In this document: piece by piece, positions 9,792 to 60,285 of the stretch
How the letters are laid out: the number at the start of each line of letters is the position of its first letter
Numbering within the stretch: position 1 is the first letter of the stretch
Virus record (IMG/VR): IMGVR_UViG_3300036770_001413
Span: 32,001-96,000 of that record
DNA length: 64,000 nt
Strand: one strand, 5' to 3'
Source of the DNA: a virus
Position numbers and translations under genes: made by a program
Notes under the pieces: model-generated
Told to the model about the DNA's origin: nothing
Seen by the model: only the letters and a program-made list of their open reading frames with translations
Databases searched by the model: none

Positions 9792-11378
9792 TTACTCGAC
9801 CTGTCTGCCTTCGCCTTGAGGATTTCTAGATTCCCCTGAAATATCGGGTGAATTATTTTCCCTCTCTTGAGTTCTATTTCTGGTATTTCCAGCTTGGGCC
9901 CTTATTTCCGCCTGCTGTTGTGGTTTTAATTGGACTACTTCGTCTCCGCCGTCCCTTGGAACCATACCCTTTCTAATTCTAATTTCATTAGGGGTAATTA
10001 CCTGCATCCTTAAATATCTCTCATCGATCTTAGATTGGGTATCCTCATCTGTGAGACTTAATTCATTAAATTTAATTTGCAGGGCGTCAGTCATTTCTTC
10101 AATTAATTTATTTAATTTCTTTTCTAGAATTTCCTGAACTGGCTTGCATACCTGCTCTTTAAATGTCTTGTCTGCATCACGAGCATTTGCCAATGAAATT
10201 CCTTGAGGACTTCCAATTTTAGAAATAGGAACACGGTGAGCCATTAATATTTCGTCTCTATTGGATTGACGATATACATTAAATGAGGACTCTTGGGTTC
10301 CCGCCTCAATTGGTTCCATCTTAAATTCAGTTTTAGAATCTGGGGAATCTGGTGGAAGTGGGATATATAGTGAGCGGTGATTTCTTCCTTTAAGACCGAC
10401 CTGGAAAAATTCCAGAAGCTTTCTCTCGGACTCTGGGGATAATTTAGCACCCTTTACTGTGATGATATATCTTGGGACCGCCTTGTTTTCAAAATAGTCT
10501 AAGTTATACTTTCCAGCAAATTCATTTCCTGCCATAGCATTTGCTGCTGCGACAATATCTGGGATTCCGTAATAGTTATTGCGTGGAGTGTACTTCTTGA
10601 AATGGATAATCTCATTAGGTCTATCGCTGCCGTCCGAAATTGGATTTGGCGTTTCCTGGTCTCCAAAGTTTCTAAAGTATACAGCCTTGCCGTATAGCAA
10701 TTGAATGAAGCCATCTCTTAGGCGGCGTACACGCATTGTCTTTGAAGGGATATGCCCAATATATCCTACCTTGCCAGATGTAGTTCTTGAAATTTCTAGA
10801 TAGCCATTTCCTGTTGCTTCAACATCTGTGTAGAATTTAATCAAGGTCTCTTTGAATGTTTCTTCTTCATTACAAGCTTCTAGCCACTCATGTAGATCTT
10901 GGCGAAGTCTATCAAGCTTACGACGTGCTCTTTCTAATTGTGCATCGTTATCAATCTCATCAATAGCATCTACTGTTTTACGGGTTTCGATAAAGTCAAA
11001 GCCAAGTCCAACTACGTTTGATACTTTAGCATTAATTGCTGCATAGTTGTATGGAGATATTTCATATATCTGAGATAGGTATTCAAGATTATATGGAGGC
11101 TCAATAAGATCAAACATAGCATAGCCTGTAATGGCTTGTGCTAATAGATTCTGTTGTGTCTCTGTTCCTTCAATTCCCACAAATCTCTTTTGAATATTTC
11201 TGCTTAGTTTGCGGCGGAATGAAGAGCCCAATCCAGATATCTTCTGTAGCTCTTCGCCAGAGGCCATAAACACATCATTTGTTTTTGTAATAACTGTTGA
11301 TGGTATATGAAAATCGGAGGCAGTAAATGCCCTTAAACCTGTGTCTATTTCTTCGTTGTTATCTTCTATCATTCCCAT
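9792..11378 (-). CDS. Portal protein
   Basis: ATGNGYLEI, EIIHFKKY, YYGIPD, YFENKAVP, ILMAHRVP and ITPNEIR motifs. Confidence 0.93.
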   Translation of the reverse strand: MGMIEDNNEEIDTGLRAFTASDFHIPSTVITKTNDVFMASGEELQKISGLGSSFRRKLSRNIQKRFVGIEGTETQQNLLAQAITGYAMFDLIEPPYNLEYLSQIYEISPYNYAAINAKVSNVVGLGFDFIETRKTVDAIDEIDNDAQLERARRKLDRLRQDLHEWLEACNEEETFKETLIKFYTDVEATGNGYLEISRTTSGKVGYIGHIPSKTMRVRRLRDGFIQLLYGKAVYFRNFGDQETPNPISDGSDRPNEIIHFKKYTPRNNYYGIPDIVAAANAMAGNEFAGKYNLDYFENKAVPRYIITVKGAKLSPESERKLLEFFQVGLKGRNHRSLYIPLPPDSPDSKTEFKMEPIEAGTQESSFNVYRQSNRDEILMAHRVPISKIGSPQGISLANARDADKTFKEQVCKPVQEILEKKLNKLIEEMTDALQIKFNELSLTDEDTQSKIDERYLRMQVITPNEIRIRKGMVPRDGGDEVVQLKPQQQAEIRAQAGNTRNRTQERENNSPDISGESRNPQGEGRQVE

Positions 11379-15593: not shown

Positions 15594-16787
<1,194 letters not shown>

Positions 16788-16795
16788 TTATACCA

Positions 16796-49291: not shown

Positions 49292-49399
49292 TGTGTGATT
49301 CACATCACCAATGTCCGATTTGCTCACATTTGTCTGGTTGAATATGTCAGTGGGGGGGTGTAGTATTTAATTATTAGATAAACGAAAGGAGTCAATAAA

Positions 49400-49591
49400 A
49401 TGACTACACTAAAATATGAATATACTGTAAAGAATTTTACCTGTGATGAGTGTGGAGAATTCTCCGATGAATTATCCAATATCACTACTGATATATCAGA
49501 TACCACTATTACCGCCCTATGCTGTGATACTGAGTATTGGGTCTATGACCTAAATCAGCTAGGTTATCAGGTTGAGGAGGTTATCCGCTAA
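49400..49591 (+). CDS. Small acidic Cys-containing early protein
   Basis: CDEC...CC; promoter and RBS present. Confidence 0.7.
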   Translation: MTTLKYEYTVKNFTCDECGEFSDELSNITTDISDTTITALCCDTEYWVYDLNQLGYQVEEVIR

Positions 49592-49701
49592 TGATAGACT
49601 CACTAACTAGAATTGACTGTAATGAGTGTAATGGTCAGGGTCTTATATTCTGGGGCAATGACTCAGACTACGATGTTGAACCTTGCGAGTGTGTGGCGTA
49701 A
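49591..49701 (+). CDS. 36-aa zinc-finger-like peptide
   Basis: CNECNGQG...YDVEPCEC; paralog of 51056..51217. Confidence 0.6.
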   Translation: MIDSLTRIDCNECNGQGLIFWGNDSDYDVEPCECVA

Positions 49702-49778
49702 ATCACACCAGACACGCCCTAGATAGGCTTGAAAATGTCAGACCTATCTGATAGCCTTACGGCATAACAATTAAATAA

Positions 49779-49834
49779 GAGAGTATGAGCCTAGCAAATA
49801 AACCGAAAGGGTGAGCCTAGCAAATAAGACTCTC
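49779..49834 (+). repeat. 16-bp direct repeat inside a stem in a 5' leader
   Basis: TGAGCCTAGCAAATAA at 49786 and 49812; enclosed by GAGAGT/ACTCTC and separated by CC-GAAA-GG. Confidence 0.8.
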
Positions 49835-49856
49835 ACTAACGAAAGGAAATAAATAA

Positions 49857-50021
49857 ATGAAAATCACTTACTCAATATGGCAGGGTAGCCTAATCAAGGG
49901 CTCACGATTCACCGCCTCAAATATGAAAGAAATCGCTAAGGTTATAGATGACCTAAACTCAACAGGTGCTAAACCTAAGTTTGAGTATTTCATCTCTCAA
50001 GTAGAACAGGATAACAAGTAA
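49857..50021 (+). CDS. Hypothetical early protein (54 aa)
   Basis: MKITYSIWQG...; AACGAAAGGAA RBS. Confidence 0.7.
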   Translation: MKITYSIWQGSLIKGSRFTASNMKEIAKVIDDLNSTGAKPKFEYFISQVEQDNK

Positions 50022-50200
50022 TGACTTACGCTATGACTTGGGAGCGAGATTATCGCTCCTACAAATACGAAACTATTCAAGATAATTATCTTGATGATGA
50101 CTTAGATGATGAACCGACAGACTTTACCGAAGTTGCCTTATCAGAGATTTCTCTTGATGAATTAGACGATGACGAATTAACAGAATTGGGTTTAATATAA
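50021..50200 (+). CDS. Highly acidic 59-aa protein
   Basis: 20 of 59 residues are D/E; translationally coupled. Confidence 0.65.
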   Translation: MTYAMTWERDYRSYKYETIQDNYLDDDLDDEPTDFTEVALSEISLDELDDDELTELGLI

Positions 50201-50347
50201 ATGGATACATATAACAGAATACTAAAGGCTCAACAGGAGCGTAGAGAATTACAGGCTCTAAAGGATAAGCAAGTAGTAGAGGCTATGTTTGCTAATCATA
50301 TGCGCCCTCTAAATAATAAGCACTTACTAAAGGAAATAGAGAGATGA
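50201..50347 (+). CDS. Hypothetical early protein (48 aa)
   Basis: MDTYNRILKAQQERREL...; abuts the previous stop. Confidence 0.55.
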   Translation: MDTYNRILKAQQERRELQALKDKQVVEAMFANHMRPLNNKHLLKEIER

Positions 50348-50651
50348 TAAATCTTATTCATACCGCCGCCCTATTATCTTTGTGTATAGGGCTAGGCTGG
50401 GCGTTTGTGATGTTTATCACACGCTAAATCGGCGTGTCAGCTTGACAAGATCGGCGGGCCCCCGCACAGTTGTGCGGGCGATTTATCCCTTATGAGCATT
50501 ATGTCCGATTCCCCGAAATCCTGCGACACGCCGAGAATTTTGTGAATTTTCTCACACGACTGAGCGTCTCATATTTTGGAATTACTCGCTAGTAAGTAGA
50601 GAAATGTCGGTGGGCTTTGGTAAAATATCAGCATAAAGAAAGGAAAACTAA

Positions 50652-50864
50652 ATGAAAACTTATTCAATAGTAGATTTGCTAGTTGACCAATACTACGCCC
50701 CTACTTCTCTCCGCCGTAGATTTAATGGTGGAATTATCAATTACGCAGAAAAGCGTGAAAATGTTTATTTATCCGAAGGCTACGAGGCTTTCGCTATTCG
50801 CTACCGCCCAACAGGGTCAATTCAAGACCAATGGGCAACAGTAGCCGTAAAAGTCGCCGACTAA
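50652..50864 (+). CDS. Hypothetical early protein
   Basis: Promoter and RBS present. Confidence 0.75.
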   Translation: MKTYSIVDLLVDQYYAPTSLRRRFNGGIINYAEKRENVYLSEGYEAFAIRYRPTGSIQDQWATVAVKVAD

Positions 50865-50917
50865 ATGTCGGTGGCTTCCACTATAATCAGATTTATCAAA
50901 ACGAAAGGAAAACTAAA

Positions 50918-51055
50918 ATGGATCTAAAAGAATTTAGAGATTTTATTATTGCCCAGCGCTTGGCAGAAAATAAAGAAAAGCGCAACGCTAATCTCACCGC
51001 AATTTTGTCGGTGGCTAATGCTACAATTACCGAAACAACAGGAAAGGAAAACTAA
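50918..51055 (+). CDS. Hypothetical early protein (45 aa)
   Basis: Start MDLKEFRD after the RBS; contains the next promoter. Confidence 0.65.
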   Translation: MDLKEFRDFIIAQRLAENKEKRNANLTAILSVANATITETTGKEN

Positions 51056-51217
51056 ATGAGTAAAATGAAACGACTACTAGAGGAAATTTCTAATTGCGAT
51101 ACTTGCTTTGGAAATGGCTATCTATACTACGGAGATGAGGAAACTTTTGATGTTGAGCCTTGTCTATGTAATCCAGAAAGTCTTGAACACCAACTATTCG
51201 GAAAAGAGGCTGACTAA
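51056..51217 (+). CDS. 53-aa zinc-finger-like protein
   Basis: CDTCFGNG...FDVEPCLC. Confidence 0.7.
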   Translation: MSKMKRLLEEISNCDTCFGNGYLYYGDEETFDVEPCLCNPESLEHQLFGKEAD

Positions 51218-51417
51218 TGTATAAACTATTTACTTACTATGACGGAAAATTAGAATTCACCGCTAATTTCTCAGACGCTCTTGAAGCGTTTGAGGCTTTC
51301 GCAAGATGTAAAGATGTAGGTTTTGCTATTGAAAACGCAACTTATAATCTAGAAATGCCAACAGGCAAAATGTATACAAAAAACTTTGACAGAATAGGTT
51401 TGGTATCTCACCGATGA
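51217..51417 (+). CDS. Hypothetical early protein
   Basis: Translationally coupled ORF. Confidence 0.65.
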   Translation: MYKLFTYYDGKLEFTANFSDALEAFEAFARCKDVGFAIENATYNLEMPTGKMYTKNFDRIGLVSHR

Positions 51418-51605
51418 TGACTAGAAAAGACTATGTCGCTACCGCAGAAATTCTAAACTATGTTAGCGATAAAACCCACCCCGCTATTTTTTCTAAAATG
51501 GTAAATGATTTCGCAGAAATGTTTGCGAAAGATAATCCTAAATTTGATGTAAAAAGATTTCACGAAGCGAGCAATTATCGTGTTCCAAAATTTACAGCGA
51601 ATTAA
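51414..51605 (+). CDS. Hypothetical early protein
   Basis: MTRKDYVATAEIL...FAKDNPKFDVKRF; coupled ORF. Confidence 0.7.
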   Translation: MMTRKDYVATAEILNYVSDKTHPAIFSKMVNDFAEMFAKDNPKFDVKRFHEASNYRVPKFTAN

Positions 51606-51705
51606 AAAAGTTTTGGATTTGCGCCGTAGTAATGCGGCGCAACCAATGCGAAATAAAAAAATTTATTCACGAAAGCGAAAGCATAAAAATAAATTTGACA
51701 ATTAG
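51580..51705 (+). CDS. Small basic protein (41 aa)
   Basis: GTG start; LRRSNAAQP...NKKIYSRKRKH. Confidence 0.5.
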   Translation: MFQNLQRIKKVLDLRRSNAAQPMRNKKIYSRKRKHKNKFDN

Positions 51706-51822
51706 TTGAAATGGCCCGCAAATATGTGTGGGGGCCTGATGTGATTTACGACACACACGGCGTGTCCCCGAAATTTTGTCAGTGTAATCTGTTATACTAG
51801 CGGCATAACGAAAGGAAAACTA

Positions 51823-51969
51823 ATGATAAAAGTTGCTTGTTTATATTATGAGATTTGTGGCACTGCTACCTATTTTGTTGATGAGGCGGAATATGAGGTC
51901 TATGGCGATGATTGGGCATGCGCCGAATGCTTAGATACTGTTGCCGAATTCGCTGTCGGTATGTGGTGA
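51823..51969 (+). CDS. Small acidic Cys-rich protein (48 aa)
   Basis: Promoter and RBS present; CLYYEIC...CAEC. Confidence 0.65.
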   Translation: MIKVACLYYEICGTATYFVDEAEYEVYGDDWACAECLDTVAEFAVGMW

Positions 51970-51982
51970 TAGAATGTCCACT

Positions 51983-52702
51983 ATGAAATTGAAACGCTCT
52001 AACGATAGGAAGGTTGCTAATGCCGTATCAAAAAATGGAAAGACCCCAACAATTGCCAACACTTTTGGATTGCCTGCTGGAAAAGATTACTCCTGCCCTG
52101 GTGCCACTAGTATTTGTGAAAGTGTTTGCTATGCAGGAAAACTTGAAAAAGTCTATAAGGGAGTAAAGGCTGTGCTCCTACACAATTGGGAGCTCCTACG
52201 CAATGCAGATGAGCCTACTATGGTTGACTTAATTGAGGATATGATTGCAGACTTTAGAAAAGATTGCGATAAGCGCAATGCAGAAAAGTTATTCCGTATT
52301 CACTGGGACGGCGATTTCTTTAGCGATACCTATGCACGGGCGTGGCAATATGTAATTACGCAAAATGCCGATATTCAATTTTGGGTTTATACTCGTGTAA
52401 AGTCTGCAGCCCTTATTCTTAAAGATATTTCTAATCTATCACTTTACTATTCTACCGATGATGAGAATAAAGAAATTGGGCACGAATTAAAGCGTGAGAA
52501 TGGTATTCGATTGGCTTATCTCGGAAAGACTTTTGCAGTCACCGAAAATGTAATGAAAGAGTTAACTGGTAAGCCTGGTGCTAAATGCCCTGAAAATGCT
52601 AAGAAAATTCCACTTATCTCTACTAATGGTTCCGCCTGCGTATCGTGTGGTCTGTGTGTTTATGGTAAAGCAGACATAAGATTTTCTGCGAGTAAAAAAT
52701 GA
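51983..52702 (+). CDS. Gp88-like Cys-cluster protein (probably leaderless)
   Basis: SCPGATSICESVCYA, FRIHWDGDFF, FWVYTR and CVSCGLC motifs; ATG 7 nt after TAGAAT with no RBS. Confidence 0.7.
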   Translation: MKLKRSNDRKVANAVSKNGKTPTIANTFGLPAGKDYSCPGATSICESVCYAGKLEKVYKGVKAVLLHNWELLRNADEPTMVDLIEDMIADFRKDCDKRNAEKLFRIHWDGDFFSDTYARAWQYVITQNADIQFWVYTRVKSAALILKDISNLSLYYSTDDENKEIGHELKRENGIRLAYLGKTFAVTENVMKELTGKPGAKCPENAKKIPLISTNGSACVSCGLCVYGKADIRFSASKK

Positions 52703-52998
52703 TGAATGCGCCATATGCAATACACGAATTGCAGCAATTAATTTGGGAGGATTCTATGGACCACTTGGCCGAATGCACGTGTAGTCTCTGTATAACACTG
52801 GATGTAATTAATGAATATGTCGGGGGCCCCGCTTGATCCCCCGCCCGCAAATGTGTGGGGGCCCAAGCATAGTTACGAGTCAAGTTAAAAACGCCCTGGA
52901 TTTTGTGATTTTTATCACAAAAAATAATTAGACCTAATCTGATAAATGTCGGTGGACTACGCTATAATTGCGACTTAACCAAACGAAAGGAAATACAA

Positions 52999-53259
52999 AT
53001 GGAAACTGCAATTGATACAACTAATTGGGTTAAATACCCTTTTACTGTTGATGGAATTGACTTTGTGTCTTTAATAGACCCTAAAGGAAGTTTTTACCCA
53101 CAACTAGAGGCTATGCCTACTCAACTGCTTAATGCTCTTAATGAGAGCGCAATTAGAGAGTTTATTGGCTCACCCGCCAATTTTTCTTTAGATGAATTAC
53201 AAGGGGAATTAGATGAAATTAACCTTGGCTATTCGCAGGCTCTAATTACCTTAGCCTAA
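52999..53259 (+). CDS. Hypothetical early protein
   Basis: Promoter and RBS present. Confidence 0.75.
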   Translation: METAIDTTNWVKYPFTVDGIDFVSLIDPKGSFYPQLEAMPTQLLNALNESAIREFIGSPANFSLDELQGELDEINLGYSQALITLA

Positions 53260-53314
53260 AAATGTCGGTGGGTAGGTGTATAATCTACCCACTAACAACA
53301 ACGAAAGGAAACAA

Positions 53315-53587
53315 ATGTTATCAACCGCAACTGCCTTAATTAAGGCAACCGAGGAAGCAATTTTTGATGAGGAGTGTATGTCTTTTGCTCAACAATTCTG
53401 CCACCATAAAGATGAATTAACCCCTGAATACTTTGCTAAGTCTATTTATCTTTATTCAACTATGATAGCAAGTCTAGCAATAGATAAGGCTATGAAAGTT
53501 TTATTAACTCAGGAGCAAGTAGAGGAATTATGCTCTGCTATTGCTGAATTAGAACAAATGGAAAATGAGGTGCTAAATGGGAAGTAA
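53315..53587 (+). CDS. Hypothetical early protein
   Basis: Start MLSTATA after the RBS. Confidence 0.75.
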   Translation: MLSTATALIKATEEAIFDEECMSFAQQFCHHKDELTPEYFAKSIYLYSTMIASLAIDKAMKVLLTQEQVEELCSAIAELEQMENEVLNGK

Positions 53588-53843
53588 TTTTGCTCATGAC
53601 TTAGCTGATTATGACTTAGGATTAGACTTATCTACCGCTATCAAGATACACCTAACTTCTAATCACTACCCGCCAATTCCCGTTGAAATGGTAGAGCCGT
53701 GTATAGATGCTATTGACGCATACCATAATGGCGATACGGATCAAGAAATACAAATGCCAAAAGACATAACCTATAAAGGCAGAAATACCGCCCCCGCTTG
53801 GGCTATCATAGAGCAACACCACCTAGAGGCTTGGTGCGAATAA
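53577..53843 (+). CDS. Hypothetical early protein
   Basis: HLTSNHYPP...IIEQHHLEAW. Confidence 0.75.
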   Translation: MGSNFAHDLADYDLGLDLSTAIKIHLTSNHYPPIPVEMVEPCIDAIDAYHNGDTDQEIQMPKDITYKGRNTAPAWAIIEQHHLEAWCE

Positions 53844-53895
53844 ATGTCGGTGGGCTATGATAGGATAGCCTTCCAAACTAACGAAAGGAAAACAA

Positions 53896-54051
53896 ATGGG
53901 AACAACCCTAGAAATCGGACAGACCTTCACGACAGAAAAATCTGGCGTAGTAGGAACAATTAAAGCAGTAGATAACCACCCTTCAGGCGTGGCTCGTATT
54001 CTGCTTGATGTAAATGGCAAAGAACGCTGGACTAGCGTATCTGCTAAGTAA
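53896..54051 (+). CDS. Small beta-rich protein (51 aa)
   Basis: MGTTLEIGQTFTTEKSGVVGTI...RWTSV; promoter and RBS present. Confidence 0.7.
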   Translation: MGTTLEIGQTFTTEKSGVVGTIKAVDNHPSGVARILLDVNGKERWTSVSAK

Positions 54052-54123
54052 TCAAATGGCAGGGCTCACAATGTCGGTGGGCTCTGCTACAATTCTCGCT
54101 CAACAACTAACGAAAGGAAAATA

Positions 54124-54546
54124 ATGGCTAGAAACGGAAAATCTATTCAAGTCAAGATTGCTACAACTAAAGTAATCAAGGCACTTGAAACTAAATTGGC
54201 AGACCTGAAAAAAACTCAGGCTACCCAAAAAACCAATGAGGAGAAATACTCAAAGGCGCAAGAGAAATGGGCTAAGGAAGTTGCTAAACTTGCTCTCGCT
54301 CAAATCGCAAAGGCAGAAAACCTACGAGCAAATGTTCGCTACAATGGCGAAATAAATGTAGATTTTGATTTACCTAAAGGCTCTATTGAATTACCAAAAG
54401 AACCTGAAAAGGATTTTGAAACCTATAACGATTGGCAGTATCGGGAAATGTTTGAGGAGATAGAGAACGCTATCCGTATTCTCAAGATGACCGATGAGGA
54501 AGTAGTAAATACTTCTACCTATAACGCTATCGCTCGTTATCTCTAA
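54124..54546 (+). CDS. Hypothetical early protein
   Basis: Promoter and RBS; followed by hairpin 54552-54577. Confidence 0.8.
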   Translation: MARNGKSIQVKIATTKVIKALETKLADLKKTQATQKTNEEKYSKAQEKWAKEVAKLALAQIAKAENLRANVRYNGEINVDFDLPKGSIELPKEPEKDFETYNDWQYREMFEEIENAIRILKMTDEEVVNTSTYNAIARYL

Positions 54547-54615
54547 TAGTATGGGGGCTAGACAAAATCTAGCCCCCTATGCTAAAATACTTATCCCTAC
54601 TAACAAAGGAAAGAA

Positions 54616-54825
54616 ATGCTAGATGTAGAAATCTACGAAATGGATTATTCAGTATCCCCTGGCGGTGTGAATTGCTGGGAAATGACTATTGGTAATAAAT
54701 GCTATTCAGACTTCAAAACTGCTGGACAGGCTTTAGACCACTTGCTAATTATGTATCCTGACTCAGGATTTAATTTAAGTGTTGTATCACTTGCTAATTA
54801 TTTCAAGGAGGATACTTATGTATAA
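54616..54825 (+). CDS. Hypothetical protein
   Basis: TGCTAAAAT promoter and AAAGGA RBS. Confidence 0.65.
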   Translation: MLDVEIYEMDYSVSPGGVNCWEMTIGNKCYSDFKTAGQALDHLLIMYPDSGFNLSVVSLANYFKEDTYV

Positions 54826-55075
54826 TCGCTATCGTGTAGAAATATATGACGAAAACAAATTAAATGATTTAACTCTATACTTTTCTGACGGAGTAAATAG
54901 AGAACACTTATCGGAATTAGTTTTTGCTAATATCCGCAGATTTCAAGGCAAGGTTAAAGCCTATGTCTTTGATAAGAAAAAGAAAGAAAAAGTTCTTGCT
55001 ATCTTTTATCCAGAAGAAATAGTTAAGAAATATAATAACAATAGACTAACTAAAGAAGAAATTGGTTTAGTTTAA
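54818..55075 (+). CDS. Hypothetical protein
   Basis: GGAGG RBS before MYNRYRVEIYD. Confidence 0.65.
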   Translation: MYNRYRVEIYDENKLNDLTLYFSDGVNREHLSELVFANIRRFQGKVKAYVFDKKKKEKVLAIFYPEEIVKKYNNNRLTKEEIGLV

Positions 55076-55080
55076 AAGCT

Positions 55081-55135
55081 TGGGGCGGGTTTGTGTCGTG
55101 TAATCATCTAGATCCCCGCCCCATTTCCTTTTTTT
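55081..55135 (+). terminator. Intrinsic terminator
   Basis: TGGGGCGGG...CCCGCCCCA followed by a T-tract. Confidence 0.7.
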
Positions 55136-55154
55136 GGCCCGCATATGTGAGGGG

Positions 55155-55184
55155 TTTTCCACAGGTTTAAGAGAGTTATCCACA
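55155..55184 (+). promoter_or_regulatory. Two DnaA boxes
   Basis: TTTTCCACA (55155) and TTATCCACA (55176), 21 bp apart. Confidence 0.5.
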
Positions 55185-55294
55185 ATCCCCGAAATTTGTG
55201 AGATTGATCACAGATCAAAGATTCCCCTATCTTGTCAAATGTCAGACCCACAGTGTATAATAACTAATTCAACTAACTATGAAAGGAAAAAACT

Positions 55295-56302
55295 ATGGCT
55301 CATAACCTAGAAACAAATGGCAATGAAGTTGCCTTTGCCCTACGTGGCACACCTGCTTGGCATAATCTTGCCAATCGCATTTTCTTACAAGATGAAAATG
55401 TATCAACTCAAATGATGTTAGATGAGGCTAAACTTTCCAATTGGAACGTCCGCCTTTCTCCTGTCGTTGAGCATATCCCTGCTGATTGGAATGATAATTC
55501 TAATTCTCAATATGTGATTCGCACGAATCCATTTAATCAAGAAACCGATGTTCTCTCTGTTGTCGGTTCTCGCTATCAAGTTGTCCAGAATGAAGATTTA
55601 TTTGCTTTCGCAGATAATATCCTAGACGGCGATTCTCGTTGCCAATGGGAATCTGGCGGTTCAATCAAGAATGGTAAAGTAGTCTTTGGCTCTCTTACTG
55701 TTCCACGTGAAATGGTGTTAGACCCACAAGGCGCTAATGATAAGACAAAGTTATATCTAATTGTCTTTACATCTCACGATGGCTCTGTTGCTGTTCAGGC
55801 AGCGATTACACCTGTTCGTGTTGTATGCCAAAATACTTTGAATCTTGCTATGCGTAATGCTAAGCAATCATTCAAGATTCGTCATACTCAATCTGCTGAC
55901 GGCAAGATAGCAATTGCTCGTGAAACTCTTGGTCTTACTCTTGGATACTTTGATGAGTTTGAGAAAGAAGTTCAATCTCTATTCGCTTCCGAGATTAACG
56001 ATAAGCAATTCTATGACATCGTTAAGGCTATTTATCCAAAGCCTGCCGATGACGCTTCTAAAATTGCTATCACAAAGTGGGATAACAAGATGATAACTCT
56101 TGCTGACCTTTACTTTAATTCGCCTACTAATGCGAATATCAAAGGCACAAAGTGGGGTGCTTTCAATGCGCTAACTGAGCGCCTTGATTATTTCCGCCCT
56201 ACTCGTGGAAAGTCAGATTCAAAGTGGATTTCCGCTTCAGGGTTTGACCCAATTATTACCGCCGAGAAGAATAAAATTCTTCAGATTGTAAAATCGGCGT
56301 AA
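55295..56302 (+). CDS. DUF932 / TIGR03299-type phage-plasmid protein
   Basis: MAHNLE, PAWHNL, YQVVQNED, SHDGS, TPVRVVCQNTL, RHT and GTKWGAFNALTE motifs. Confidence 0.88.
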   Translation: MAHNLETNGNEVAFALRGTPAWHNLANRIFLQDENVSTQMMLDEAKLSNWNVRLSPVVEHIPADWNDNSNSQYVIRTNPFNQETDVLSVVGSRYQVVQNEDLFAFADNILDGDSRCQWESGGSIKNGKVVFGSLTVPREMVLDPQGANDKTKLYLIVFTSHDGSVAVQAAITPVRVVCQNTLNLAMRNAKQSFKIRHTQSADGKIAIARETLGLTLGYFDEFEKEVQSLFASEINDKQFYDIVKAIYPKPADDASKIAITKWDNKMITLADLYFNSPTNANIKGTKWGAFNALTERLDYFRPTRGKSDSKWISASGFDPIITAEKNKILQIVKSA

Positions 56303-56308
56303 TCTATA

Positions 56309-56328
56309 AGGGCCCCGCAAGGGGCCCT
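56309..56328 (+). terminator. GNRA-capped hairpin after the DUF932 gene
   Basis: AGGGCCCC-GCAA-GGGGCCCT. Confidence 0.6.
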
Positions 56329-56470
56329 GCAATTCCCCCAGGATCTTGCAGCTAATCGCCCGCAAGCCTGAAATCCAAAAAAGATTGTTACGACAAGGGG
56401 ACGGAACCCCTGGATTTTGTCAGTCGGGTCCGCTATAATACTCCCCATGACAACAAACGAAAGGAATACA

Positions 56471-56926
56471 ATGGAACACGTATCAATAGATGCATATAAC
56501 CCACATGCGTTTATTACTCTCCGTAAAATTAATCCAGAGAGCAATGACAGTATGTTTATTATGCACAAAGCAACTGAACTCGAGGAAACTCTAGATAGAA
56601 TTAAGAATCTAGAAAAACTAGTCGAGATTACTCAGAACCAGATTGGCCAAGTTCTTGGCAATATGACTGCAGATGGCTGGTATAGTTCGAGCACAGATAA
56701 ATCAGAGGTATTGTCAGACCTATGTGATATCTTTGACCATGAACCAAAACAAGAAATCAGAATCACAGGAACTATGACATTCGAACTACGCTACGATTGT
56801 CCACTTGACGAAGTCGAAGATTTTGACGCTCGTTATTTTGCACAGGACAACTTGTCTGTTGACTCATATAACGGCAATGTTATTGTCGAATCATTCGATA
56901 TCGAAGATGCGGATGTGGATTGGTAA
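56471..56926 (+). CDS. Acidic hypothetical early protein
   Basis: Start MEHVSID after the RBS. Confidence 0.75.
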   Translation: MEHVSIDAYNPHAFITLRKINPESNDSMFIMHKATELEETLDRIKNLEKLVEITQNQIGQVLGNMTADGWYSSSTDKSEVLSDLCDIFDHEPKQEIRITGTMTFELRYDCPLDEVEDFDARYFAQDNLSVDSYNGNVIVESFDIEDADVDW

Positions 56927-57135
56927 TGTATTATCAATTACAAGCACCTGATAGGCTATCTCTTGAGATGGCCTATTGGGAAGCACAAATTGCTGGATTA
57001 GACCCAACTTGGATTGGCGGTAATGTCATGGACATTGGCACAGGACAAATTGAAAAGGTTTCAGCCTTGATTTCTAAGCATAACTTAGATATACTAGTTG
57101 AAACAGATTATCAGCCAACAGGTTACAGGAGGTAG
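56920..57135 (+). CDS. Hypothetical protein
   Basis: Coupled ORF. Confidence 0.6.
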   Translation: MVMYYQLQAPDRLSLEMAYWEAQIAGLDPTWIGGNVMDIGTGQIEKVSALISKHNLDILVETDYQPTGYRR

Positions 57136-57136
57136 C

Positions 57137-57295
57137 ATGGACTACAAAGAAGGCTTTCAAGATGGCGTTCAATTTACTCGTGAGGTAGTTATCGCCAATA
57201 TTCGTAAATGGGCGGAATCCCATGACGAAGGACATGTATTAGATTGGGTAGCAGATAGAATAGAATTTGGGACATTAGATAATGACCTCGGATGA
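57137..57295 (+). CDS. Hypothetical protein
   Basis: AGGAGG RBS before MDYKEGFQDG. Confidence 0.6.
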   Translation: MDYKEGFQDGVQFTREVVIANIRKWAESHDEGHVLDWVADRIEFGTLDNDLG

Positions 57296-57497
57296 TATAA
57301 CTAAACCAATCTATTGTGACCGTTGCCCTACCTCCCGTGCTGCTTATTTAGTTAAAATACTAAATGGGGAATTAGCTTTTTGTAACCACCATTACAGAAG
57401 GCACAAAGAGGCCCTTGACAAGATGGCCTATGAAATTATAGAATTAAACCGTAAAGAAAAAACACCTCAACTAGAAAAGGAAGAAATAAATGGGTAA
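57282..57497 (+). CDS. Small zinc-binding protein
   Basis: CDRC...LAFCNHH. Confidence 0.7.
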   Translation: MTSDDITKPIYCDRCPTSRAAYLVKILNGELAFCNHHYRRHKEALDKMAYEIIELNRKEKTPQLEKEEING

Positions 57498-57897
57498 TAG
57501 AGCGAACTTCGTATTCGTAGACGGAGCAGGCGATTCAATCGTGCTGTATGGGCACTGGGCTGGACATCAAATGCTAGGCAAACTAGCGGACGCTGTCATT
57601 GCCGCCAGGCCTCGATGGAACGATGAATCATATGCAACACGTATCGCAATCAGTCAACTAATTGGAGACCAATGGAACATGGAAACTGGATGGGGTCTGC
57701 AGATTAATTCAATTAGCGATAATGAGCATAAGATTGCCGTCATCAATTGGAAAGAGCGGACGTTCAGTCTTCACGCAGAGGACGACCATCGCAACTTAGA
57801 CAACAAGGTTCTAGGAATGAAGAACGAGGCTATATTCACTATGGACCTCGAAGCATTCTGTGAGAAATACGCATTGGATGGATTGTTAGCCGTTTAA
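57490..57897 (+). CDS. Hypothetical protein
   Basis: MGNRAN...LYGHWAG...RWNDESYATRI; AAGGA RBS. Confidence 0.75.
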   Translation: MGNRANFVFVDGAGDSIVLYGHWAGHQMLGKLADAVIAARPRWNDESYATRIAISQLIGDQWNMETGWGLQINSISDNEHKIAVINWKERTFSLHAEDDHRNLDNKVLGMKNEAIFTMDLEAFCEKYALDGLLAV

Positions 57898-57915
57898 ATA
57901 TGGTATAATAATTAT

Positions 57916-58050
57916 CCATGGCAAGGTGCCGCTATTAGCGATATCCGCAAGTGGCTAAGTAATGCAGCTTTTACTTAATTCCTTTCGTTGCAGCTAGCAG
58001 CCTTGTTTGTTTATTGATCTAGATCCCCCAGAAATGGGGGATTTATTTTT
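57916..58050 (+). ncRNA. Candidate sRNA antisense to the early-gene RBS
   Basis: TGGTATAAT promoter at 57901, several hairpins, ATTCCTTTCGTTG at 57978-57990, terminator at 58021-58050; no meaningful ORF. Confidence 0.6.
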
Positions 58051-58181
58051 GCCCGCAGAACCTGAGAGTAAAATTAGCTCTTTACGTAATCTAATGTATT
58101 TTTCCCAGAATTGGGGTATATTGCCAAATGTCAGTGGGGTAATATATAATTGGACCATTCAACCAACGAAAGGAATATACT

Positions 58182-58949
58182 ATGCCTAACTGGGTATATA
58201 ATGGTCTTACAATTGAAGGCAATCCTGAATTAGTAAATGACCTTGTAAAACAACTTAATAAGCCATTTGTCATGTTACATGATAATTGGAATCCTACATC
58301 TGGAAAAATGGAAGTAGTTCAAACTACATATCCTAATCCTATATTTGCATTCTATAATATCTATAATCATAGACAAGCAGGTATATCTGATAAGGACTAT
58401 CTTGCACAACCGCCACGAGATATGCCCATTGAAGAACAAATGCTATTTCAGACAAATGATTGGTATTCATTTAATGTTCGTGAATGGGGCACAAAGTGGG
58501 ATGTTGCTGTATCTGAAAATAAAGAATATGCAGATACATATATAGAGGGTCCTACTGAGAATGGAGAGAATCTAGTAGTTTATTATAATTTTAATACTGC
58601 ATGGTCTCCGCCTATGCCTGCCATTTCTAAACTATCTGCACAATATCCTAGTTTATTGTTTACTATGTCCTATGAGGAAGAAACAGGTTGGGGTGGGGAA
58701 TGCGAGTTCCTCCGTGGAGAAATGATTTCTGAATCTGATTATAGTAATAAATGCCGTGATTGTGAATCAGAAAATACATTAGATTATTGTGAGAATGATT
58801 GTGGCGAGATATGTTCATCTTGTAATTGGATGGGTGAGGCTGATTTAGAGGCGGTAGCAGAATGTCAGACCCATAAGATATACTTGGATTCCGAGCATGT
58901 CCCTGATTATAGAAAGGAAGCACTAGAAAATGCAACACGGAGCATTTGA
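58182..58949 (+). CDS. DUF1281/YubB ferredoxin-like domain protein
   Basis: MPNWVYNGL, WYSFNVREWGTKWD, FNTAWSPP and YEEE motifs; Cys-rich tail. Confidence 0.8.
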   Translation: MPNWVYNGLTIEGNPELVNDLVKQLNKPFVMLHDNWNPTSGKMEVVQTTYPNPIFAFYNIYNHRQAGISDKDYLAQPPRDMPIEEQMLFQTNDWYSFNVREWGTKWDVAVSENKEYADTYIEGPTENGENLVVYYNFNTAWSPPMPAISKLSAQYPSLLFTMSYEEETGWGGECEFLRGEMISESDYSNKCRDCESENTLDYCENDCGEICSSCNWMGEADLEAVAECQTHKIYLDSEHVPDYRKEALENATRSI

Positions 58950-60285
58950 TGATGTCGATTTAATGGTAAAAGACGCAATATTCTCAGATATTGCTGACCA
59001 ATTACTAGAAGACTGGATTAATAACTTATTAGATGAGGGTCAATATTTTGCAGATTTGCAAGTTGCCTCTATGTCTGGTGACCCATTTTTACAGGATAAA
59101 TTTAATAAGTTCTATAATTTAACTCCTGAACACAATGATTACTTTGAGGTGGAATAATGGAATCTGAATATATTAATAGGAAGACACAGTTAACTACTTA
59201 TCTTCAATTACATATAATGTCTTTGAATGAGGACTTAGTTCAGATATCTAAGCATATGGATTCCTTGGACCCCGCCTCAAAAGATTATGCTGAATTAGAT
59301 ATTGAGCATACCTATACAAGCGGCCAAGTTTCTGCTACAATGCACATCCTTGAATATGTAGAGGAGATAATGTGAACACATTAGAACTGGAACCACACCT
59401 GCAGAAGCAGGTTGACGCTGGGTCCTCTGGGACTGATATCTTGCACGGGCATTTAAAGGTGCTCATGTTGGACGCAGAGCGTGAATTGGAGGAAGCACAA
59501 CGCATAGAGGATGAAACAGAAGAAGCAATGGATTCCATGGAGCGGAAGTATTGGGAAGGCCAATTAGACGCTCTTACATATGTCTACCAAATGACATATG
59601 CATTAGCATTTGCAATCGATGAAAGGACAAAGAAGAATGGATAGAGTTCATATAGAATCATTAGATGTGCTCAAAGCAAAAGAGCAATTAGATCTACAGG
59701 AGGCAACACGTAGAGATGATGTTTATAATCAACTAAATGAGATTATAGATAAATTAGAGAAGATTCCTGTCTTCCCGTCATTAATGTGGGTATGGTCCTT
59801 TGACGTTATCAGAGAGATATTTGAGAACTATCAGATGAAGGACCTTGCTGTAAATGATTATGTTGATGAGGCTGTGCCTGAAGGCATAACATTAAAACAA
59901 ATCTTTGATAAGTTCTGGGATGATGTAGACGGGTTCGGTCTTAGCATGGATTCGGGCGGGGACATCATAGAAGAGACAATCAGAGATTGGATGAGAGATA
60001 ACAATTTCCTAGTATCCCTGGAGGAGGAGTCAGATGAATAAATATAAAGTATTTGGAGATAAGGTAGTTGACTACTATATTAATGTAGAAGCAACTTCTG
60101 CGGAGGAGGCATGGGACATTGCCTCCAATGCAGCAACGACTGATTGGATCCAAATGGAAACAGATAACACCATTCAGGTTCATTTTGTAGATAATGAGCT
60201 TGAAGAAGATACATCTAATCTATTAGAAGATGGATATCCGAATATAAATAACGATATTATCATATCGGACAAATCGGACATTTAG
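58930..60285 (+). CDS. Operon of five small acidic hypothetical proteins
   Basis: Coupled ORFs 58930-59157, 59157-59375, 59372-59644, 59637-60041 and 60034-60285. Confidence 0.65.

Follow-up and report, generated by a model that had tools for sequence, protein, structure and literature searches.

A conserved structured RNA in an apparent freshwater phage of actinobacteria, with a predicted loop complementary to the leaders of early genes

The DNA considered here is a window of 64 kb (bases 32001–96000) from the virus record IMGVR_UViG_3300036770_001413, which is 107,545 bp long with direct terminal repeats and looks like the genome of an uncultured freshwater phage of actinobacteria, lytic by appearance. 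Positions given below are those of this window, the whole stretch that was analysed, unless the genome is named. The element under study lies in a gap of 285 bp that separates two genes on the plus strand, and is a predicted small RNA of ~135 nt (57916–58050, + strand) made up of a structured core, a linker, and an intrinsic terminator. Its upstream neighbour is a gene for a protein of 135 amino acids (57490–57897, + strand), which is the last in an early operon running from 56456 to 57897, and a further early gene lies directly downstream. With regard to the likely host, a neighbouring DUF932 protein has homologues overwhelmingly from phages of Mycobacterium, Streptomyces, Microbacterium, and Arthrobacter, and the phage genome also encodes WhiB.

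Many of the early genes in this part of the window carry a common leader. The sequence AACGAAAGGA occurs as 11 exact copies in the window, compared with a mean of 0.05 in shuffled sequences, and ten of these are on the plus strand (at 49381, 49838, 50900, 51807, 52982, 53300, 53880, 54109, 56456, and 58165), confined to one early block of 9 kb. Each of the ten has an ATG 5–10 nt downstream and, upstream, a promoter of the form TGTC[AG]GTG-N8-TAnnnT, with the conserved TGTC[AG]GTG box in the spacer and TAnnnT as the −10 element. A box placed 8 nt before the −10 element in this manner (49345–58150, for example 58129–58150) has what we take to be the form of the PafBC (RecA-NDp) promoters of actinobacteria. 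The predicted leader tag, (C)AACGAAAGGA(AU), supplies about ten early genes, each with its own promoter, with their Shine-Dalgarno sequence. The remaining copy is the only one in antisense, on the minus strand at 57980–57989 within the gap described above, and the rest of the 107.5-kb genome contains no further copies. No ATG, GTG, or TTG follows this antisense motif at ribosome-binding-site distance on the minus strand, so it is not simply another ribosome-binding site. Both points agree with an earlier reading of the same letters (the original prediction), which had placed the exact antisense of the early ribosome-binding site in an intergenic unit with its own promoter and terminator, now located at 57901–57909 and 58020–58045.

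Most of the structural genes, which are on the minus strand, have ribosome-binding sites of the AGGAGG or GGAGG type. The register of anti-Shine-Dalgarno pairing differs between the two groups of genes, with GAAAGGA(A) at early genes (49381–58912, + strand) and AGGAGG, GGAGG, or AAGGCGG at structural genes (3329–46584, − strand). Four more early genes, at 50638, 51042, 55281, and 58912, have GAAAGGAA without the AAC tag. Because the 3′ end of actinobacterial 16S rRNA is presumably ...CCUCCUUUCU, GAAAGGA would act as a Shine-Dalgarno sequence by pairing with the extreme end of the 16S tail. On the same assumption, the AAC of the leaders lies past that end and is unusable as part of a Shine-Dalgarno sequence. 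These three bases are complementary to an invariant GUU in the loop of the RNA, which is in keeping with the earlier suggestion that the RNA would explain the conservation of the extra AAC in the leaders.

The RNA is preceded by an extended −10 promoter, TGGTATAAT (57901–57909, + strand), identified by its motif, which lacks the TGTC[AG]GTG box of the early promoters and predicts a transcription start at ~57914–57918. The predicted RNA has a minimum free energy of −44.2 kcal/mol (z = −2.7) and ends in an intrinsic terminator (58020–58050, + strand), in which a G+C-rich stem-loop (58020–58045), with an 11-bp stem around CCCCC-AGAAA-UGGGGG, is followed by a U tract, TTTATTTTT on the transcribed strand. 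All related loci that were gathered number 127, and genomic contexts were counted over 68 distinct relatives. A run of at least four Ts is found within 90 nt 3′ of the core in 57 of these 68, and a G+C-rich hairpin is present at the terminator position in the relatives inspected. In 56 of the 68 contexts, the 100 nt in front of the RNA include the strict promoter motif TGNTATAAT, and three further contexts have a promoter of the TTGACA-type −35/−10 kind. About ten of the 68 have no separate promoter for the RNA; in these, the RNA comes right after the upstream gene's stop codon and forms the 3′ end of the operon. The six-codon open reading frame that had been noticed after the promoter (ATG at 57919) is real in this genome; it is missing from the relatives inspected, in which the 5′ strand of the first stem (P1, described below) has no ATG there, and the unit has no conserved open reading frame.

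Use of the 135-amino-acid protein as a query identified 44 related viral contigs, with protein identities of 43–89%, and the element is recognisable at the same place in all of them. Its parts follow the order GGUGC ... GCUAAGUAA-GCAG ... UCCUUUCGUU ... CUAGCAGCC, then a hairpin and a T run. An alignment of 30 distinct homologous sequences (A1) was the source of a consensus fold and of a covariance model (R1), whose only hit in the genome scores 76 bits. In the predicted fold, the core would consist of two hairpins, P2 and P3, closed by the stem P1 and followed by the terminator, and all of the positions that follow are on the plus strand. P1 pairs 57921–57927 with 58000–58006, as obtained from the consensus fold and pair counting, with compensatory changes at four of its seven pairs and 96.7% of alignment cells paired. 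The P2 hairpin (57928–57955) joins GCCGCU (57928–57933) to AGUGGC (57950–57955) around an inner part of variable length, and has two compensatory pairs and 98.9% of cells paired. It is followed by a junction, UAAGUAA(U) (57956–57963), which is UAAAUAA in some relatives and whose columns are nearly invariant in the alignment. P3 (57964–57998) pairs GCAGC (57964–57968) with GCUAGC (57993–57998), with A57996 bulged, three compensatory pairs, and 97.3% of cells paired. The consensus fold gives P3 a loop of 24 nt (57969–57992). This loop would display the seed, AUUCCUUUCGUUG (57978–57990), the core of which is UCCUUUCGUU (57980–57989); the seed is conserved and predicted to be open.

Pair counting over the alignment supports this fold. 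Standard pairs occupy 97.6% of cells, compared with 81.7% in shuffled alignments and 22–48% when the partners are slid, and changes on both sides occur in 9 of the 18 pairs, compared with 6.7 in shuffles. The covariation score is 0.428, compared with 0.129 in shuffles and at most 0.08 with the partners slid. It is the plus-strand RNA that folds, because an invariant U-G pair in P1 and the many G-U pairs would turn into A-C mismatches if the other strand were folded, and because the T tract follows the hairpin on the plus strand only. The folding originally proposed survives in part: the closing stem GCAAGG/CCTTGT corresponds to the conserved P1, whereas CGCTA/TAGCG is not the conserved P2. A helix between TAAGUAA and UUACUUA, a possible pseudoknot with P3, had also been proposed and was not accepted, since it can form in only 11 of the 30 sequences, shows no covariation, and has G-to-A changes that are uncompensated. 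No transfer RNA or transfer-messenger RNA was found at the locus by ARAGORN, and a cmscan of 57000–59000 against Rfam 15, with E values up to 10, gave chance-level matches only, with neither a C4 nor a 6C RNA among them.

Reduced or altered forms of the element occur elsewhere. At one locus (L041:3411–3470) P1 and P2 are gone, and a single G+C-rich hairpin keeps UUUCCUUUCGUUC in its loop and is followed by a terminator. The Streptomyces phage NootNoot has a match of 18 bits to the covariance model (L224:1501–1571; record positions 10606–10676 and 130905–130975), located just past a gene close to the end of the terminal repeat. The features in common are GGUGC, P1, P2, GCUAA, and CAGCC, and P3 is a short capped hairpin without the anti-leader loop. 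A score of 18 bits is too weak to call homology; the sequence in NootNoot may be a remote relative of the scaffold.

Within the aligned sequences, the P3 loop is the most conserved part of the RNA, above the stems. A pattern that is independent of the seed (GCTAAGTAANGCAG, a gap of 8–38, then AGCAGCC) retrieved 78 viral contigs with 33 distinct sequences, and UUUCGUU is present in all 33. The seeds of these sequences fall into three classes, UCCUUUCGUU (25 sequences), UACUUUCGUUGG (7), and CCCUUUCGUU (1), and over the 127 loci the corresponding numbers are 109, 16, and 2, again with UUUCGUU invariant. The predicted ensemble of the 135-nt RNA leaves UCCUUUC (57978–57986) unpaired with a probability of at least 0.96, and opening of the seed would cost 1.6 kcal/mol for 10 nt or 2.0 kcal/mol for 13 nt. 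Averaged over the 30 homologues, the seed is 0.66 unpaired, compared with 0.40 for the whole RNA. The seed is thus conserved and predicted to be single-stranded, in the loop of a hairpin that is supported by covariation.

The RNA family is common in freshwater viromes, with 127 loci and at least 78 contigs. The seed-independent pattern gave 12 matches across 185,579 cellular genomes, one of which fits the RNA model, and identified no host copy and no prophage; the one fitting match is on a 2.9-kb contig of a metagenome-assembled genome, and is probably phage-derived. A blastn comparison of the 1.2-kb region with 50,697 records of cultured phages gave zero matches.

The loop is complementary to early leaders over the 10–13 nt that had been anticipated, and the ten leaders are the only sites in the 107.5-kb genome with at least 10 nt of contiguous complementarity to the seed. 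This complementarity to the initiation regions of several mRNAs is above chance, and is placed 5–10 nt before the start codons. All of the predicted target leaders are on the plus strand. The shortest match is AACGAAAGGA itself at 49381–49390 (10 nt complementary, net energy −9.5 kcal/mol), and matches of 11 nt are found at 49838–49848 (−11.8 kcal/mol), 50900–50910 (−12.7), 51807–51817 (−12.4), 52982–52992 (−12.1), 53880–53890 (−12.3), and 54109–54119 (−12.6). There are 12 nt at 53299–53310 (−15.2 kcal/mol) and at 56456–56467 (−12.2), the latter being the first leader of the operon that runs into the RNA, and the best match, of 13 nt at 58164–58176 (−13.7), belongs to the gene directly downstream of the RNA. 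These net energies, calculated after opening both RNAs, range from −9.5 to −15.2 kcal/mol, with a mean of −12.4. The seed/leader duplexes themselves have energies of −15.2 to −18.0 kcal/mol over the ten leaders, compared with −5.4 ± 2.6 kcal/mol for the seed against 40 gene start regions on the minus strand (Mann–Whitney p = 6e-7), in keeping with the earlier claim that the AGGAGG and GGAGG leaders of structural genes would pair much less well. An assumed 16S tail pairs with the early leaders at about −9.8 kcal/mol.

The same layout is seen in related phages. In each of five other near-complete genomes (109–115 kb), AACGAAAG is present 8–14 times on one strand, almost all within a cluster of 7–10 kb, with one lone copy on the opposite strand, either inside this cluster or next to it. 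The leaders of relatives are mostly of the form (C/U/A)AACGAAAGG(A/G), and the common variants AGC, AAU, and GAC still pair with the loop through G-U wobble. Leaders also differ according to the class of the seed, and in the variant class they are relaxed or changed at the GGA positions, which would lie opposite the altered seed bases. The first base after AACGAAAG is G in 91% of cases in the UCC class and 77% in the UAC class (UACUUUCGUUGG, 16 loci), the second base is A in 68% and 37%, respectively, and leaders with AAAGGUA and AAAGAGGA are common in the UAC class. The mean energies of cognate loop–leader duplexes (−15.3 and −15.0 kcal/mol) are better than those of cross-class duplexes (−13.9 and −14.25 kcal/mol), a gain of ~1 kcal/mol in each comparison. 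We regard this joint shift of seed and leader as supportive of pairing but not decisive. In line with the original prediction, then, the RNA is conserved and structured, its seed is predicted to be accessible, and relatives in which the leader is retained show little or no variation in the seed.

These comparisons of sequence lend good support to the conclusion that the phage has a structured RNA, conserved and specific to phages, in which an invariant and exposed loop is complementary to the early leaders. Since the loop mirrors a leader common to about ten early genes, one RNA probably controls the translation of the whole set. The interpretation that we favour, and consider reasonably probable, is that 57916–58050 specifies an anti-leader small RNA that damps the translation of early genes, with no need for a chaperone such as Hfq. 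The seed would pair in trans, over 10–13 nt, with the (C)AACGAAAGGA(AU) leaders, and the duplex would cover the ribosome-binding site near the 5′ end of these short leaders. As a consequence it should block binding of 30S, and the duplex would perhaps also alter decay of the mRNA. The sequences show the conserved structure, the invariant and accessible loop, its specific complementarity to the leaders, and the recurrent layout, and from these we infer transcription of the RNA, its pairing in vivo, the repressive direction of its effect, and the timing considered next.

In the proposed mechanism, early proteins would be turned down as a stable RNA accumulates, and the RNA would have two sources, initiation at the extended −10 promoter in front of it and transcription of the preceding early operon, whose 3′ end it would form. 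No terminator was found between this operon and the RNA, and together with the ten or so relatives without an RNA promoter this suggests that the RNA is probably made early too, as well as from its own promoter. With two sources, the circuit would amount to a delayed negative feedback on the early regulon, which fits better than a strictly late switch. The original prediction had assigned the promoter to the structural-gene class and had proposed that the RNA shuts off the early regulon. There are 18 copies of TGNTATAAT in the genome, compared with ~10 in shuffles, and because several of them are located 6–35 nt before long open reading frames on the minus strand, the promoter of the RNA can be described as the plain type found at structural genes. 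The first part of the claim therefore stands for several structural genes, with an enrichment of only ~1.8-fold over shuffles, and its reading as a ‘late promoter’ is weak because the RNA is probably an early product as well. At three places, window 16787–16795 (− strand) and genome 23048–23056 (−) and 104948–104956 (−), TGNTATAAT is only 6–8 nt before the ATG of a long open reading frame. Leaderless mRNAs are common in actinobacteria, and genes with this spacing would be expressed as leaderless mRNAs.

Several observations weigh against the anti-leader interpretation. The RNA-library sequences that match positions 55000–60000 are metatranscriptome contigs from four studies, and consist of low-depth pieces over 57764–58000 and 57814–57964; they span the junction of the upstream gene with the RNA core, none ends at the predicted start or terminator, and contigs of this kind cannot reveal ends, strand, or RNA origin and are indistinguishable from DNA carry-over. 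Production of the RNA alongside the early genes would make the timing of a simple shut-off depend on additional assumptions, for instance that the RNA is stable and that a threshold operates. The seed had been described as apparently unpaired, and this applies to UCCUUUC but not fully to GUUG, which is partly paired in the predicted ensemble for this genome. An unconstrained energy scan with the whole loop (27 nt) ranks GC-rich chance duplexes above most of the leaders, only two of which are in the top 20, and the expectation that the leaders would head a target ranking thus holds only for contiguous seed matches. The co-variation of seed and leader in relatives, also expected at the outset, is seen in the variant class and goes back to what is essentially a single evolutionary event; an alternative reading of the CC-to-AC change is compensation inside the RNA, in which a 4-bp inner stem CCUU/GAGG becomes UACU/GGUA.

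A further point of this kind is that GGUGC, GCAGCC, and UAAGUAA are invariant beyond the needs of pairing, which points to a protein or tertiary contact. The RNA could be real and have a main job other than leader pairing, as a scaffold or decoy for a protein of the phage or the host, such as the 135-amino-acid product; the loop would then be conserved as a protein or tertiary contact, with its resemblance to the leaders a secondary matter. The gene for this product adjoins the RNA in 62 of 63 loci that were found without using the gene, and the weak match in NootNoot has P1, P2, and GCUAA and no seed loop. We nevertheless consider this explanation unlikely. An invariant loop that matches, over 10–13 nt, a motif with ten copies in the same 9-kb block is hard to obtain by accident, the layout recurs in five out of five other genomes, and the minimal hairpin at L041 drops the scaffold and keeps the loop.

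A slightly less likely explanation again is that the RNA is a cis-acting element in the 3′ untranslated region of the operon 56456–57897, and either pairs only with the 5′ leader of its own mRNA or stabilises the 3′ end. The continuity of gene and RNA without an intervening terminator, the promoterless arrangement in about ten of 68 relatives, and the RNA-library contigs that bridge the two are all compatible with such a role, as is the first leader of the operon (56456), which is itself a 12-nt match. Against a cis-acting role stands the conservation of a separate promoter, as TGNTATAAT in 56 of 68 contexts and as a −35/−10 promoter in three more. Moreover, nine leaders on separate transcription units match the loop equally or better, and the best of them is that of the downstream gene.

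The seed could also be a mimic of the 16S tail that titrates Shine-Dalgarno sequences generally, or that titrates a factor binding the 16S tail. UCCUUUC is equal to 7 nt of what we take, from general knowledge, to be the 3′ tail of actinobacterial 16S rRNA. This possibility is improbable, as the invariant core is UUUCGUU, in which GUU is not 16S-like, and CCUCC is absent. Furthermore, the AGGAGG sites of structural genes pair poorly with the seed (−5.4 kcal/mol), and the variant class UACUUUCGUU breaks the CC; since the variant seed keeps CUUUCGUU and drops the 16S-like CC, it argues against a simple mimic. Finally, we give very little credence to the idea that there is no functional RNA and that the antisense copy is either a chance match or a feature of the DNA itself, such as an inverted copy of a site bound by protein or the scar of a recombination event, for although the early block is dense with DNA motifs and the prior chance of one 10-mer antisense match is only a few percent, there is covariation in three helices with G-U pairs that are workable on the plus strand only, the promoter and terminator are conserved, and the loop is kept across 127 loci.

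The proposed anti-leader RNA can be compared with several known systems. The c4 RNA of phages P1 and P7 is a structured small RNA whose loops pair around a ribosome-binding site of the phage's own mRNA and block expression (PMC12197685). Like c4 and the CI RNA of P4, the RNA described here is a phage-encoded, structured small RNA with a loop sequence complementary to the phage's own mRNA near the ribosome-binding site. It has a different fold, with no match to the C4 model, and c4 and CI act on one operon in the immunity of temperate elements, whereas here one loop would act on about ten separately promoted early genes. The c4 RNA and its target come from a single transcript, and the same may partly hold for the present RNA. 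The 6C small RNA (B11) of Mycobacterium tuberculosis binds several mRNAs by pyrimidine-rich hairpin loops and does so free of a chaperone (PMC6486639). It differs from the phage RNA in being host-encoded, in its structure, and in its C-rich loops that bind G-rich sites; the phage RNA has a single seed loop, in which the seed is U-rich and 10–13 nt long, would target the phage's own genes, and has no match to the 6C model. Loop pairing without a chaperone is the likeness between them, and is the mechanism expected in hosts without Hfq, a protein that actinobacteria, to our knowledge, lack.

In phage T4, RegA is a translational repressor and RegB is an endoribonuclease that cuts GGAG in early Shine-Dalgarno sites. 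These are early products that switch off a set of early mRNAs at their ribosome-binding sites, and the proposed RNA would be their RNA counterpart; RegA and RegB are proteins that recognise their targets through protein–RNA contacts, whereas base pairing is proposed here. The Pseudomonas phage PAK_P3 has abundant late small RNAs, of which sRNA1 matches an early gene, and sRNA2 a late gene, over 11 nt each (PMC4933390). They were later suggested to be processed fragments of 3′ untranslated regions (PMC10914365). They resemble the present RNA as small RNAs of a virulent phage that were proposed to act by pairing, and differ from it in having a single internal match each, with no shared leader and no regulon. 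Our literature searches found no precedent for a phage small RNA aimed at a leader that an entire set of early genes has in common.

The timing of gene expression in phages is generally attributed to promoters, sigma factors, repressors, and a small number of RNA-binding proteins. If the interpretation given here is correct, one small RNA and a shared leader tag would form a compact post-transcriptional switch over about ten independently transcribed early genes, in hosts without Hfq, and would explain the retention of three leader bases that are useless to the ribosome. A broader proposal, which we put forward more tentatively and would not yet rate at even odds, is that phages of actinobacteria mark their early regulon with a private leader tag (AAC plus the Shine-Dalgarno sequence), and use one chaperone-independent loop RNA that reads the tag as an RNA-only master switch or timer. 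The pair of tag and anti-tag, of 10–13 nt, could be put to use in actinobacteria as a portable switch of translation. Given how common the family is in freshwater viromes, it is of relevance to the biology of the dominant actinobacteria of lakes.

The protein encoded directly upstream of the RNA was considered as a candidate partner of the RNA, and has no Pfam family. Its AlphaFold model has a predicted local distance difference test (pLDDT) score of 84; a Foldseek search of the model against the PDB gave no match at E ≤ 0.001, and the best score in a wide structural alignment search with VIA-align was Z 3.3. The usual gene order is altered at one locus (L165), where the homologue of this protein is downstream of the RNA and a DUF1281-like gene is upstream, an order that suggests that the DNA surrounding the RNA has been rearranged locally.

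A second conserved non-coding block is present right after the terminator, at 58051–58120, and consists of CCCGC, ~25 nt, TTTACG, ~15 nt, and TTTCCCnGAA. It is kept in nearly all relatives and is also found upstream of the early promoters at 51777, 52947, and 56418, and is probably a regulatory module at the level of DNA.

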